Assembly: GCA_964016885.1 (NCBI GenBank)
Contig: OZ024742.1
Location: 54,188,001 to 54,252,000 of the forward strand
Length of the DNA stretch: 64,000 bases
Origin: Eledone cirrhosa
Taxonomy: Eukaryota
Direction of reading: 5' to 3'
Translations under genes and position numbers: made by a program
Notes under the pieces: model-generated
What the model saw: only the letters and a program-made list of their open reading frames with translations
What the model was told of the DNA's origin: nothing
Database searches by the model: none
Shown: piece after piece, positions 32,145-63,626 of the stretch
Position numbering within the stretch: the first letter of the stretch is position 1
How the letters are laid out: every line of letters starts with the position of its first letter

Positions 32145-32310
32145 TGTGTGTGTACATAGATATATACATACATTAATAACAATTTTATTTGTCTCCAATG
32201 CTTAGACATACATTTTATATATATATATATATATATAAAACTTATGTCTAAGCATTGGAGACAAATAACATTTTAATTAATGTATGTATATATCTATGTA
32301 CACACACACA
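32145..32310. repeat. Inverted repeat (~65-bp arms) around a (TA)n spacer
   Basis: TTATTTGTCTCCAATGCTTAGACATA / TATGTCTAAGCATTGGAGACAAATAA. Confidence 0.9.
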
Positions 32311-32408
32311 TATATATATATATATATATATATATATATATATATATGTGTGTGTGTGTGTGTGTGTGCGTATATATATATATAGATAAATACATACAAA
32401 TATATATG

Positions 32409-32770
32409 TAATTACAACGTGCATATAAACCATTATTAAAATTTCAAGACATTTAATTACCGACAATTGTTTTTTGCCATACGTATTACTTGTATTGATA
32501 TTATATCAATCGTTTGTGAATTTAATTAAACACTGACGATTCCTGTGGTAACTAATAGCAAATTGTGAAATGAAATAACTTGTTGCTGGTGGTATATTCC
32601 TATGGGACGAAACAATTGCAGGTAATTAAATGTCTTGAACGTTTAATTTTGGTTTATAAGCACATTGTAATTATAAATTTGCTCTGCTTGATCTAATCAT
32701 ATTATTGAATTAAAATAGACCTACTAAATGAGCAAAAATTACTCTTATAAATATTATACTATTATTAATA
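32409..32770 (+). mobile_element. Penelope-type pseudo-LTR fold-back insert with hammerhead motif (32533-32623)
   Basis: Arms ~32409-32480 / ~32600-32673; CTGACGA...GAAACAATTG; the inverted arm preserves GTC. Confidence 0.7.
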
Positions 32771-32944
32771 CATACATACATACATAAATACACACATACA
32801 TACATACAAACACCACACACATACATACATGTATATATATATATATATATATATATATATGTGTGTGTGTGTGTGTGTGTGTATATATATATATATATAT
32901 ATATATATATATATATATATATATATATATATATATATATATAT

Positions 32945-34045
32945 ATAATTCTTTGTCTGTCTATCTGTCTGTTCCTATGCATTTTCAAATGGCTCGACCA
33001 AATCAAACCGAATTTTACAAGTATTACACCCCGGGATGGATAACATGTCATTTTTATTTTCCTTTGGATTAAATCAATATAACATTTTATCTAGAATATT
33101 CTACTATAATGTATAAACGAACATTCTATAACACTACGGCTACGATGACAATGACGTCACATTTTATATATGAGTATGTATGTGTTTGTGAGTGAGTGTG
33201 TGTGTGTGTGGTGTGTGTGTGTGAGTGTTTGTTTAGGCGTTAGTTATGTACCTTAAGCCTTATTAAGTTACATACACATACATCTTCATGTAAACATGTA
33301 TTCAGATACACAGATAATTAAACACACACACACACATCTACACATATGATGACTCACAAGTGTGTCTGTGAGTATACATACATTTCTGTGACGACTGACA
33401 TAACGAAACCTGTGTGAGAAAATCTGTGTCTGTCCGTGGGTGAAGTTCTGTGTGTGTTTGTATGAATGTATGTCGGTGTGTGTTTTTTATAAGTGTATGT
33501 TTTTGTGTGAGTGTATGTGTGATTGTTCGTTTATATTTATATTCTCATACCGTTAAATATATATTTGTTTTAGATGTTGATACCTATTTGTTTACAATAT
33601 TGAAAAAAATGGTTTTATTCTAAAAATTCTTCTCATACCTACAGTTGTTGCATTTGAATTTAAGAGACTTCAGTTTCCAGTCAAACTAAGTTTTGTTATT
33701 TCAAACTCAGGGTCAATCAAGTCAAGGTAGTTGGACTTGATCTCTCTGCTACATGTTTCTCCCACGGTCAACTCTCTGCTGGTTGCTCACAAGTTGGAAG
33801 CAGAAAAATGTTTTTCATTTGGCCACCAATAAAAAATTTCACAATGAATATTGTTTACCCTGAGCTGCTACAAGATTAAGAGATTTTCATTTCTACATTC
33901 TATTATCATTACAATTTATATATTTTTTTAATAAAATATATATATTTTGAAATAATTCTGAGAAAAAATATATCTTCATATTTATTGTTTACTAATTTGA
34001 ATAAGAACAGCAGTAACCAAGACAATACCACGTCATTCAGCTCGT
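32945..34045 (+). mobile_element. Non-autonomous Helitron retaining a PIF1-helicase C-terminal remnant
   Basis: 5' (GTCT)n; ~33640-33870 reads FEFKRLQFPVKLSF..QGQS..VVGLDL..CFSHGQL..GCS.VG..NIVYPE; degenerate 3' hairpin. Confidence 0.82.
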
Positions 34046-59775: not shown

Positions 59776-60769
59776 GGTGACATACCTGCAGTCTAATGCC
59801 AGAATCCAGTTAAGTAAAGTATCTTGAAATACGGGACAGTTACTTTTTCTTTTACCATCGATATTTGTCCTGACGCGCTGTTTTCTTGTTCAGGAGCATA
59901 TATCACATATTACATTTTCAATAGCATTGCGACCATTTTCAAGGAGGCTTCGTAACGTTCTCTCTTAAATAAAGCGGTAGAGAGGTAATAAAGAATCTAC
60001 AGTAAAGTTGATTGCAAGAGAACTTAAGCACTAAGAAAATGACCTAAGCATTCCAAATATGTTATACAACACTAACAATACTACATCCACATCAGCACCC
60101 TTATTTAAAAAAATTACTCTATTAGTATTATGTCATAAAAACTTGATGGCATTTTCTTCTCCATTGTGCAGGGAAAAAACATAAAATTTTAAACATAATC
60201 AAATGTATGATAAATATGCATGGTTATTCATTATTCCATAGCCTAATTTAAAATAGTTATTTAAAATGAGTTTATGGACTAATTAATTTATGGACTAAAA
60301 TTGAATTAAATCGTTCATACTAACACAGGATCAAGTTTACGTAACTTTTGGACAGAAAGATAGACTATATTTAAAGCAGTATTTGATTTGAATTTATTTC
60401 GCCGACTCTTGTGATTAGGAGCGACAAAATTCCACCTGGTGCTACTTAAAGTGAATATATAATGAAACATAACATAATACCGCGAAGTATTTGGTTTAAC
60501 GCATAAAATTAAAATGATTTCTAAAGTAGGAACCGACTTTACTCGTCTGCTTATTTTATTGGCCGGGAGAGAAACGTTATGGTAATCACCGTGAGAGTTG
60601 AAACTAGATTTTAGTAGAACATAAATATAATCCCAAATCGATAGCAAATTAAAGAAAAAATATTGTAACAAAATAGGAACTTTTTTACCGACAACAAATT
60701 AGAATAGAATTTACAATTCCAGGGAGAGAAATAGTTTGCAGTATTTGTTTTTAAATCCATACGGGGTCA

Positions 60770-62988
60770 GTTGACGTTTACGTTATTTAGAGTTATACCA
60801 ATTAAATACCAAACGTTTCAAAATCTGAAGTGTTGTCATTATGAGGTTCTCTGACATTCTGCTAAGTTATGATATTTTGAAAGATTTTTACATGTAGATT
60901 TAGTCATGCCCACTATTAAACTGGCATTAAATATCATCCACACTATAGCGTTGAAAATATAATGAATGAAGACCCGATTTTAACTTGTGCAATTGGTTTT
61001 CCTTATACAGAAATAAGACCAGCAATGTTCTAAATGTGGATGCTAAAACATCTAGAACAAACCCACAGCAATCCAAGAGATAAAACCGTCAAATATTTTA
61101 ACACATAAGAAAAACATTCAGAAAGTCAATGTCAGCCTCAAACTCCTATATTCGATTTCAACCATTATTACATGGTCTCACAGGCATTGTATATTAGTAA
61201 GATGTCATGGTTGGGCACAAAGAATACACGTATATAGGCGCAACCTCAACAACCCTTAAGGAGCGATTGTACAACCACAAAAGCTCCTTTCCCCACAGAC
61301 CTAAGTGTTCCCAAACCAGACTGGCCGATTTAATCTGGGACCCCAAGGATAGAAACCTAAAATACCAGATCAAATAGTCCGTAAGGAGACGCGTGGCTCA
61401 ACATTCTAAGGGAGGAAGCCACTAGTGGTTGTGCCTGGTGGAATCGGTAGAGATCATTAAATTAAAACCAGCTATTAATTTGAAATCGGAAATCTACATA
61501 AACTGCAGACACACAAAAGAAAAAAAACACATTCCCCGCCATGGTATTCGGACATAAACTACGGACAGACCAAAACTTAACCACCTGAACACAGACAACA
61601 ATAGGCACGTACACTGCATCCTATTAACTACCACATTTATTATCATGTCTCATCAACTCATTACCAATGTTACATTCATTACCATTGTTATTCTTGTTAA
61701 AATATTATATTCTTGACCATGTCCCTCATTATTAAACATATCACCATGTATTCACGAGTCTTACCCACATAAACACGCACCGCACACACGAGACGACACC
61801 TAAACACAACAACACCATCCTATAAATTACCACAATTGGTATCATTACTTTCATTTGTTTCACCAATATTATCATCGTTATTATTACTATTACATTTATT
61901 TCCCATTACTATTAACATTTTCACACTTCTTTTACTAATCCAAAAATAGTTTTTGCCACCACATTTTTTACCACCATATATTCTTCTATGATATTTATCT
62001 AGACACACTGCTGTGTATATATATATATATATATATATGGGTACACTCTTGCAGACGGATATAGTTGTATGAAGGCCCGGGTCTATGAGCACGTATATAT
62101 CTGAATGTGTGCATATGCAGGGATACAGACATGTGTATGTGTATACACGTGGCTGTGTGTGTGTAGCTACGAATACTCTATGTGAGTGTGTGTGTGTGTG
62201 TGTGTGTGTGTGTGTGTGTGTGTGTGTGTGTGTGTGTGTGTGTGTGTGTGTGTGTGTGTGTGTGTGTGTGTGTATCGGTGTATAAGTTAGTCCATATAGT
62301 TAGTGTAGCAGCTATTTCATTTATTCATTCATCTATTCATTTATATTCATTTCACACACTAGGCACAACCCTTAATTCTTTATTTTTTCTAGTACAAAAA
62401 AACCCTTTAAGGATATAAATAGTTTACACCTTAATCTAGGTTTAATTTACTTTTTTTCTTCTTTTTTTCTTTTGATTCTTTTCTTTTATTCCTCTTTGAA
62501 AAATCTCTGACCAATAGAACCCCCCCCCCCCCTTAGTACAGCACCGAACTCTTTCATTTCCCATCACGTATAGCCCATAACCACCTCCACACCCACACCC
62601 AGTACCATCGCCTCGCCACATATATGCCATAGTTTATAGGAAACAGCCAAAACACGACACACGCGCAACTCACACCAACCATCGCTCCCCACCACCTCTT
62701 CATCATAGTCCTTCCTCCTACCTGTCACACAACCCAAAACATTTCTTACAGCATAAAAAAAACAATCAAAACAAATTAAAACTTACCACCATAACTGAAT
62801 GTGAATCGTGATAGACCTTTATAGGCCCTACAGGTTCAATCTGTCATTATCACAGTAGAAGTCCGACGAGCCTTTGAATCCAGAGTTGGGCTAGATCGAT
62901 ACAGATCGAACCTTGAGCTGATCAATAGCGAAATGCGCGTCACTACTCAATAAACGTAATGAAGACATAATAAATCGTCATTTTTATT
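60770..62988 (+). mobile_element. Decayed Penelope-like 3' part (GIY-YIG ~61180-61510) with terminal pLTR hammerhead at 62860-62944
   Basis: GIVY..YIGATSTTLKERLYNHKSSF; AGT-CCGACGA-GC...GC-GAAAT-GCGC-GTC-ACT. Linkage of ORF and pLTR is inferred. Confidence 0.7.
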
Positions 62989-63424
62989 ATATATATATAT
63001 ATATATATATATATATATATTTACATACGTTCACGTGTATTTGTATGTGTATGTGAGTGTGTGTGTTCACTAATTCCAAAGTTTAAAAGAATCTGTTTAT
63101 TTGTTTTAATACCTTCCTTATTACGGTATATCGATAGTTTAATGGAAGTTGTTAAATCTACTTCACTGAAGGCTAAATACGATTGTCGAATGCTGTCTTG
63201 AAAGACATCTCGGAGGCAAGCCAATTATCTGTGCACATCTGCTTTTCATTATAGAGGCTAACGTTTCTCGTATTAAAGTGTAGATGCATTCAGTCTTTAT
63301 TTATCTTTTACAACAGACCTGAGCATATATATATATATATATATATATATATATATATATATATATATATATATATATATATATATATAGAGAGAGAGAG
63401 AGAGAGAGAGAGAGAGAGAGAGAG

Positions 63425-63626
63425 AGGAGAAAGTATGACCCCGACGGCGGAGCTCAAGCCGTTTCGACGGCTATTTCTGGATACATTAGTCCAGAAATAG
63501 CCCTCGAAACGGCTTGAGCTCTGTCGTCGGTGTCATACATTCTCCTATTACCCACTCTACTACCCTACGTATTGAGTACTCTGGTACGTTATGGTCCATC
63601 TGGTTCTTTACCACAACTCCTTCGTT
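63425..63626 (+). mobile_element. Second fold-back insert of the 43451 family
   Basis: Arms 63425-63481 / 63490-63546; same tail ATTACCCACTCTACTACCCTA.GTATTGAGTAC. Confidence 0.88.

Follow-up and report, generated by a model that had tools for sequence, protein, structure and literature searches.

It is still asked how Penelope-like elements (PLEs) form inverted, tailed insertions, and the matter is named as an open question in Craig et al. 2021 (PMC8557442) and has been answered only in part by in vitro work (PMC11167929). The question is raised by a stretch of 64,000 nucleotides from Eledone cirrhosa (assembly GCA_964016885.1, contig OZ024742.1, positions 54,188,001 to 54,252,000), called here the window, in which nine inserts consist of an inverted arm, a forward arm and an unpaired tail on one side. 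Two of them, element A at 37688 and element B at 45696, hold remnants of a reverse transcriptase (RT) and a GIY-YIG endonuclease (EN) between their arms, and the other seven are short. On balance it is judged probable that the long inserts are decayed PLEs of the Hydra-clade type lodged in (TA)n and that, through twin priming, the same reaction gave six of the seven short palindromes as its shortest products.

Inverted matches were obtained by comparing the window with itself after microsatellite masking, with 20 block shuffles as control. All nine inserts were recovered at the places where an earlier note on this DNA had put them. Altogether 15 local inverted pairs lie in the masked 32-64 kb, none in the first 32 kb, and none or one in the shuffles. 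The arms of element A (37741-37889 and 40946-41094, 149 bp) are 98.7% identical and those of element B (45698-45926 and 47595-47823, 229 bp) 97.4% identical; in the short inserts the self-inverted matches span 32409-32673, 42054-42230, 43451-43554, 43830-43937 (100%), 43979-44086, 56952-57052 and 63427-63544. The unpaired tails measure 44, 63, 78, 79, 79, 94, 96 and 101 bp in eight inserts and 286 bp in 56943; their earlier description as one-sided holds, while the range of 65-100+ bp given with it does not. Likewise, the little or no spacer claimed for the short inserts is true of 43748, which has none, and not of 32409. The tail-less ends, which are defined by the arms and were set without reference to the flanks, lie within 12 nt of a (TA)n run of at least four units in eight of nine inserts, compared with 2.8% of background positions; the ninth, at 63425, adjoins (AG)n. 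Over all ends, tailed and tail-less, such contact amounts to 16 of 18, a figure that gives no independent test of (TA)n because the tail ends were delimited by TA runs. The preference for (TA)n is supported in these inserts, and it has already been published for the Hydra clade (PMC8557442). TA microhomology of 0-4 nt at the tail-less ends was discarded as evidence, such overlaps being too short in AT-rich DNA.

The nature of the long inserts is indicated by their coding remnants. Seven full-length homologs were gathered with the RT fragment at 45917 as query, and in tblastn against the window they cover 37884-39460 and 45917-47162 collinearly, with E down to 6e-68, which bears out the RT and GIY-YIG sequence noticed earlier between the long arms; the same seven also match endonuclease remnants at 48359-49129 and 61183-61524. 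Both long elements have the RT followed by a C-terminal GIY-YIG and an inverted pseudo-long terminal repeat (pLTR) with a one-sided tail (arms of 149 and 229 bp, tails of 44 and 101 bp), as expected of endonuclease-positive PLEs. In a Pfam search the RT fragments of the window were not recognised and the GIY-YIG match, with E 0.0072, fell short of the cut-off. The Hydra clade is defined by the motifs RWK, DKT, CxCx5C and CxxC/CxH and by the lack of CCHH, and almost all of its families have hammerheads and insert into (TA)n (PMC8557442). Among the full-length homologs DK[TS], CxCx5C, CxxC and CxH are each present in seven of seven and RW[KR] in five of seven. Within the window the CxCx5C linker is found in three remnants (open reading frames, ORFs, 38986-39351, 46537-47076 and 48254-49147); CxxC and CxH are intact in the last of these and the corresponding part is frameshifted in elements A and B, from which the N-terminal RWK/DKT region has gone through 5' truncation. 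By reading, the EN has a single Cys in the GIY-YIG core and no CCHH. Near the 3' end a hammerhead ribozyme matches the full descriptor in both arms of element A, and element B shows the core, a long stem II and a palindromic stem III only. Judged by these motifs, the long inserts would be decayed Hydra-clade PLEs. A mirror arm accompanies two of the four GIY-YIG remnants of the window.

The argument for two priming events starts from the position of the tail. In element A the ORF is on the plus strand and the long body stops tail-less at 41094, the tail being carried by the short inverted left arm; in element B the tail is on the long forward arm and the short inverted arm has none. A tail that sits on the short arm in one element and on the long arm in the other points to two priming events, and in element A these are needed unless a later rearrangement moved the tail, since a long cDNA from the tail-less site holds no tail and a cDNA of 200 nt cannot template 3.2 kb. 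At the inner junctions, where the arm meets the RT body, at least 3 nt belong to both in element A, the last three bases of the inverted arm doubling as the first conserved Lys codon of the truncated RT, and at least 1 nt in element B, as judged from conserved codons. The inner end of the short arm lies 52 and 67 nt upstream of the hammerhead core in the two elements; ribozyme cleavage as the arm boundary was ruled out on account of this lack of a fixed distance.

It is proposed that the GIY-YIG endonuclease would nick both strands of a (TA)n run and that at each nick the RT would start at one of two fixed sites of the pLTR RNA, start site A giving the tailed end and start site B the tail-less end. 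The two sites are suggested here by ends common to two copies and by breaks in reads. Both cDNAs would halt early, and their 3' ends would pair head to head through 1-4 nt of microhomology or a self-complementary spot of the hammerhead, after which they would copy each other. Where the pairing is symmetric, the palindrome would have no spacer; where the cDNAs stop unequally, the arms would enclose a body of 0.1-3 kb and either of them could bear the tail. To go by the distances, a paired TTGAGCACT box probably serves to position the start sites, one copy lying shortly downstream of each. With head-to-head pairing added, a single scheme explains why the outer ends are fixed, why the tail may be on either arm, why the centre is free and why some inserts have no spacer. 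On this view the inserts are dead ends and not a self-propagating hairpin element.

The short inserts are tied to PLEs by hammerhead parts, which are present in six of the seven. The hammerhead descriptor matches eight times in the window and never in 20 shuffles, with four of the eight matches inside the arms of 37688 and 43748. A CTGANGA core with a downstream GAAAC and a near-palindromic stem III is found in 32409, 42055 (where the intact core is on the left arm, at 42141 minus) and 56943, as well as in 45696; 43451 and 63425 retain only GAAAC and stem III. The insert at 43748 is a perfect palindrome of 116 bp (43826-43941) with one hammerhead per strand (cores at 43879 minus and 43888 plus, stem II loop at 43899-43902), stem I of which runs through the palindrome centre. 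The inserts 43451 and 63425 form one family with 78% identity, and the tail of 42055 resembles a solo 3' end at 35570-35636, so that the short inserts, earlier put into several unrelated families, are in part related. Both outer ends are common to 43451 and 63425, the tail-less arm stopping at an equal base, and the apex differs; at four sites both arms of one copy agree with each other and differ from both arms of the other. A 26-letter pattern of this family had no match in metagenome or viral contigs. From their sequence, six of the seven short inserts are likely to be products of PLE 3' ends. The origin from PLEs by 5' truncation put forward in the earlier note is supported for the long elements and most short ones, though not for 43979, which has no hammerhead. 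For the short inserts it is further backed, indirectly, by the tail box treated below, which is common to full-length Hydra relatives and present in four of the seven (among the six hammerhead inserts it is strong in three, weak in one and absent in two), and by the variable centres and optional tail in other copies of the 43748 family. Two further descriptor matches have no mirror arm, one at 41929 (+), about 125 bp upstream of the 42055 insert, and one at 55675 (-). The right flank of 32409 is (ACAT)n. The coordinates are collected in Table 1.

Table 1. Arms, tails, coding remnants, short inserts and solo ends of PLE type or related layout in the window
Feature	Positions	Strand	Description
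Element A, tail	37694..37737	-	44 bp, on the short inverted arm; box variant TTGAGTGC near 37722
Element A, inverted arm	37738..37889	-	complete hammerhead, core at 37837
Element A, coding remnant	37887..39460	+	5'-truncated, frameshifted RT, CxCx5C linker and GIY-YIG
Element A, forward arm	40946..41094	+	hammerhead, core at 40998; tail-less end in (TA)n
Element B, inverted arm	45698..45926	-	tail-less; hammerhead core at 45859
Element B, coding remnant	45917..47162	+	5'-truncated RT (from the RDD motif), CxCx5C linker and GIY-YIG
Element B, forward arm and tail	47595..47924	+	core 47662, long stem II; 101-bp tail 47824-47924, weak box
Old short insert 32409	32409..32767	+	inverted arm, spacer of ~100 bp with hammerhead core (32533), forward arm, 94-bp tail; no clear box
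Short insert 42055	42054..42293	+	apex at start of hammerhead core; 63-bp tail, box at 42244
Short insert 43451	43453..43631	+	apex just upstream of GAAAC/stem III; 79-bp tail, box at 43575
Short insert 63425	63425..63625	+	43451 family, outer ends equal, centre longer; box 63569; left flank (AG)n
Short insert 43748	43748..43937	-	78-bp left tail; high-copy family, variable centres
Atypical insert 56943	56945..57338	+	apex 6-7 nt upstream of hammerhead core; intact core 56994 minus; 286 bp unpaired
Short insert 43979, other origin	43979..44182	+	palindrome from 3' half of tRNA-like sequence; 96 bp unpaired
Solo 3' end	35457..35636	+	no mirror arm; hammerhead 35467, box 35579, (TA)n
Solo 3' end	44361..44741	-	hammerhead 44600 minus; depth drops away from the 3' end
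Solo tail-less 3' end	31960..32072	+	related to arm of element A; core 31970
Third GIY-YIG remnant	48254..49937	+	CxCx5C linker; no mirror arm; ends at (TA)n
Fourth GIY-YIG remnant and presumed 3' untranslated region	61183..62987	+	no mirror arm; ends at (TA)n

Relatives in metagenomes point to a signal that may set the two start sites. The scan confirmed 328 relatives and returned 79 loci, to which the counts refer: a hammerhead is present in 58, a (TA)n run of at least five units in 19 and some inverted repeat in 16, several of these repeats being unrelated to the element. One full-length relative in a metagenome contig (L001) has the layout of the window, with (TA)6, an inverted arm, a hammerhead-bearing pLTR and a full ORF. 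The TTGAGCACT box lies at most 100 nt upstream of the ORF start, mostly 20-35 nt before it, in 42 of 54 loci, where shuffles expect 1.2. Two boxes stand 57-68 nt apart in 13 of the 21 clusters having the stretch from hammerhead to ATG, a count made with crude ATG calling that stopped early in some clusters. In four loci (L015, L042, L049, L073) the junction with (TA)n comes 37-41 nt past box 1. Ends or starts precede a box by 12-27 nt in L001, L015, L019, L039, L042, L051 and L056, and in six inserts of the window the tail-less end does so by 17-32 nt. Five (TA)n junctions without box information were left unclassed (L015 with core 2826, L016, L022, L059, L072), L066 was left out for its loose cluster link, and natural (AT)4 runs inside pLTRs were not counted as ends (L012, L040, L050, L052, L054, L058, L060, L070). 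Such a run, about 64 nt past the hammerhead core, sits at the position of the tail-less end in L050, L052, L054, L058 and L060. In L019 (654-663), L051 (974-987) and L056 (952-965) the 5' starts of near-full-length relatives join (TA)n 12-25 nt before a box, the kind of site where 3' ends also stop; this likeness, as if a unit were cut or closed at one site, may hint at tandem or circular templates.

A matrix trained on the metagenome loci alone puts five of its eight best window sites in PLE-type tails (63569, 35579, 43575, 42244 and 37722); its scores are weak for 43748 and 45696 and at background for 32409, 43979 and 56943. A control on the opposite strand (35 of 54) was set aside as uninformative, the box being nearly its own reverse complement. 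The box is present in the published Hydra-2_Amil consensus and absent from the Hydra-1_Obim leader. No published account of the box with Penelope was found in a search that did not include Arkhipova 2006 and Evgen'ev and Arkhipova 2005, which may bear on it, and the paired box is not mentioned in the available portion of PMC8557442. It is put forward tentatively, as a possibility still rather doubtful, that Hydra PLEs carry TTGAGCACT as a conserved, duplicated cis-signal between hammerhead and start codon, with about 60-65 nt from one copy to the next, each copy seating one subunit of a dimeric RT-endonuclease and fixing the RT start 12-32 nt upstream, with the two cDNAs closed head to head on hammerhead helices. 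Were this true, box spacing would set tail length, and the ribozyme fold would, besides cleaving, have a structural part in insertion.

Further copies of the 43748 family were compared with the reference 43748-44741 at 80% likeness in contigs of three sequencing runs (X4, X1 and X2) and in restriction site-associated DNA reads of a fourth (X7); the best run, X4, holds 0.49 of sampled window words. In all four the family reaches great depth, with CTGATGA as the majority core. In X4 the right arm has a depth of 138k and the left arm of 950k, about a seventh, which indicates that most copies are not palindromic. In each of the four runs there are records that leave the family sequence at 43826 and pass into AT-rich or (TA)n letters (1445 reads in X7 at a depth near 3100, 421 records in X4, five in X1 and three in X2). 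Past this point X1 and X2 give a clean (TA)n consensus and X4 and X7 a mixed one, so that diverged tails would make up part of the breaks. At least 15 distinct arm-to-arm centre joints were found, three joints of "opposite strands" at 43806-43809 in X7 having been left out; among those listed, four are symmetric within 1 nt and 11 asymmetric, many with filler bases. The deepest, which joins 43864 to 43903 (X4 depth 137.7; 18 reads from three starts in X7), swaps exactly the four stem II loop bases (43899-43902) for other letters in both X4 and X7. Two further symmetric joints lie at the same loop, the spot at which a cDNA stalled in stem II would pair either with itself or with the other cDNA. 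At the solo end 44361..44741 the read ends pile up at 44485-44496, and one fold-back copy was found in X4.

The loop is equally the place where snap-back would occur, that is, where one cDNA that started at the tail end would stall, self-prime and copy back toward the target, stopping before the tail. Copying back of a nascent cDNA had been offered earlier as the general mechanism; in our estimate it is rather unlikely. It would explain the spacer-less symmetric centre of 43748 (116 bp, 100%), the deepest recurring joint on the natural loop and the subfamily variants common to both arms, and junction palindromes were taken as a sign of self-priming in PMC3846280, although with antisense RNA as the template. 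However, it cannot yield 37688, where the short arm has the tail and the long arm is without one, and it leaves the equal stop base in 43451 and 63425 unexplained. Solo ends, moreover, occur both tailed (35467) and tail-less (31970), as two start sites predict. Snap-back may contribute to some short inserts, with the same product.

It appears improbable that the short palindromes are longer inverted insertions whose centre was later lost by cruciform- or hairpin-driven deletion: 43748 is perfect and spacer-less, whereas central deletion in palindromes normally destroys symmetry and does not create it, and the older inserts 32409 and 42055 are not shorter than the young ones. The 11 asymmetric joints of 15 listed would fit such a loss, as would the microhomology-mediated deletions in Penelope copies (PMC3846280), but very short PLE insertions are known to arise de novo, with a median of 128 bp for Chlamys (PMC9977147).

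The possibility that the short inserts are non-autonomous hairpin elements, similar to miniature inverted-repeat transposable elements (MITEs) and spreading as palindromic units, is very slight. High-copy families, a genuine terminal inverted repeat (TIR) element nearby (36617-36803) and the lack of PLE marks in 43979 could be quoted for it, but the inverted arms are not terminal, the tail lying outside them, most 43748-family members are not palindromic, and hammerhead and box tie the families to PLE pLTRs. The centres vary, with at least 15 joints in the 43748 family and two in the 43451 family; this argues against a fixed apex and largely refutes a MITE for the 43748 family, and the MITE structure of TIRs with a fixed interior was not found, while any TA target site duplications (TSDs) would be hidden in (TA)n. 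Nevertheless, the risk of mis-annotation as MITE or microRNA (miRNA) was rightly foreseen, as Rfam has no match on the window at gathering score and only sub-threshold miRNA matches on the hairpins. That the palindromes are assembly or chimeric-read artefacts is scarcely credible, for although no listed X4, X1 or X2 contig spans the 43748 apex of the window (with the best run holding the above fraction of words), the arms differ at several bases in eight of nine inserts, the flanks are not mirrored, the tail is one-sided, and an equal layout is found in the unrelated metagenome contig L001 and in the published consensus Penelope-13_HM.

Several points weigh against twin priming as set out here. 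The case for it over snap-back leans mainly on one element, 37688, and a later rearrangement moving its tail could be an alternative to two priming events. The variants shared by both arms could equally come from snap-back, from conversion between the arms or from two RNAs of one source, and apices near the hammerhead partly follow from the short length of the inserts. No short palindrome was found joined to coding sequence or an ORF: upstream of the 43748 hammerhead the loose ends are AT-rich, with agreement of 0.41-0.55 over a 30-letter consensus, and the letters of the family diverge upstream of stem I, no coding sequence being reached. Most of the joints are single contigs with a short side of 20-36 letters at 80% likeness and are unreliable, only joints inside the reference are visible, and the unspanned apex of 43748 counts here too; fold-back library artefacts at natural hairpins have been described (PMC10908179, bioRxiv 10.1101/2020.01.30.927491). 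As to the box, it is absent from three of nine tails and weak in two, the motif was chosen after both data sets had been viewed, and the box loci form 37 clusters, so that the 54 upstream windows are not independent. Finally, 56943 and 43979 do not fit the pattern of start sites A and B.

Of these two outliers, 56943 has an arm that stops inside hammerhead stem II and an 11-bp duplication at its left end. The insert 43979 contains a B-box-like stretch (44053-44063), and upstream of the apex its family has an A-box-like stretch (498 X7 reads with agreement of 0.89; 35 X4 contigs), the two together completing what we read as a putative tRNA-like sequence. On neither strand of 43979 is there a CTGANGA core, its box score is at background, it has no TA microhomology, and ARAGORN found no tRNA in the window. 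A minus-strand PLE end with a variant core was ruled out, as G8-A9, a stem I/III partner and the box are missing. The insert is a fold-back of a tRNA-like repeat and stands outside the claim of twin priming; either the PLE machinery took up a SINE-like RNA or the fold-back is unrelated to PLEs. The PLE machinery may act in trans on tRNA-headed repeats such as this one; a literature search for such a non-autonomous element turned up only the retrozyme paper.

The neighbourhood is rich in other repeats. The element at 36617-36803 is 187 bp long with 40-bp TIRs (95%) and TA at both ends, and it presumably is a true MITE of Tc1/mariner type. Two palindromes, at 32145-32308 and 36810-36994, have a (TA)n run as their centre, unique arms of about 45-70 bp and neither tail nor hammerhead; they possibly arose by fold-back at nicked self-complementary (TA)n or are MITE-like, and they form a class apart from the tailed inserts. 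Between the copies of a 43-bp terminal inverted repeat (34054-34265) lies, in inverted orientation, a 90-bp piece of the adjoining repeat 34372-34641; that repeat contains a CTGAAGA core (34425) and recurs at 80% at 41398-41664. Further small hairpins, imperfect and lacking both tail and hammerhead, were seen at 50559-50629, 58440-58476 and 63907-63939. A high-copy repeat at 44210-44317 is matched without difference by contigs of 340 letters in X1 and X2, whose labels name two other organisms. A SINE-like repeat has three copies of 84-90% (19935-20106, 48109-48224 and 52331-52445), of which the one at 48109 adjoins the 5' end of the third GIY-YIG remnant. A non-LTR retrotransposon remnant occupies 219-3300 (-) (RVT_1, E 2.9e-28), and at 4276-19652 (+) there are three tandem, partly deleted LINE copies with a CAA/CAG-rich ORF1 and endonuclease-RT frames, which we take to be Tx1-like.

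The closest known system is the Hydra clade, with which the inserts share the order of RT and GIY-YIG, CxCx5C, the lack of CCHH, the 3' hammerhead, (TA)n, 5' truncation, the inverted truncated copy and the tail at one end. Among the families in the supplement of PMC8557442 are Hydra-1_Obim of Octopus bimaculoides and Penelope-13_HM, whose 5' end bears an inverted copy that is 5'-truncated. Here, however, the tails of 44-101 bp exceed the 30-40 bp given for PLEs in the same paper, and many inserts are shrunk to the hammerhead region alone, unlike those described for the clade. In vitro, the Poseidon element PAc of Anolis carolinensis cuts and extends both DNA strands, and its RT has two start sites on the RNA, the tail being the stretch between them (Frangieh et al. 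2024, PMC11167929). AT-rich targets are common to PAc and the inserts, as two RT starts spaced by the tail and the cutting and extension of both strands would be, and a dimer is predicted for PAc. PAc differs in belonging to the Poseidon clade and in starting inside the ORF, in an AC-rich stem-loop reported as non-homologous to the target, whereas the ends in the window lie between hammerhead and start codon, several with a TA overlap of 1-4 nt; in its available portion, the PAc study models no inverted arm.

The Penelope of Adineta vaga (Arkhipova et al. 2013, PMC3846280) likewise has a head-to-head inverted pLTR, an optional tail, junction palindromes and microhomology at the 5' junction. 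For it, self-priming on antisense RNA is proposed and TSDs of 8-10 bp are reported, while here (TA)n would hide any TSDs and two priming events are the reading favoured by the geometry of 37688. The PLE remnants of Schistosoma (Cervera and De la Pena 2014, PMC4209133) share back-to-back hammerheads in truncated copies and a palindromic helix III. Their dual minimal hammerheads lie on opposite strands 100-700 bp apart, and the portion available has no analysis of ends; in the window some pairs are less than 20 nt apart or cut through the ribozyme. With MITEs and miRNA hairpins the inserts have in common that they are short, non-coding, strongly folding, TA-flanked and high-copy, and they differ in that their inverted repeats are not terminal, the centre varies and no Rfam gathering score is reached; 0.2-kb hairpins of TA-rich animal genomes can therefore be misread as MITEs or miRNA precursors. 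Beyond PMC3846280, PMC4209133 and PMC9977147 the literature search gave no explicit account of hairpin-sized PLE stumps. Targeting of (TA)n, inverted 5'-truncated copies, the one-sided tail, two RT starts and inferred self-priming are already published (PMC8557442, PMC11167929, PMC3846280), and the architecture itself is not new. What the window adds to these systems is a dense natural size series in which the geometry of a tail on either arm discriminates between insertion models, together with the paired box as a concrete, mutable candidate for setting the two start sites in the Hydra clade; these are the parts worth experiment.

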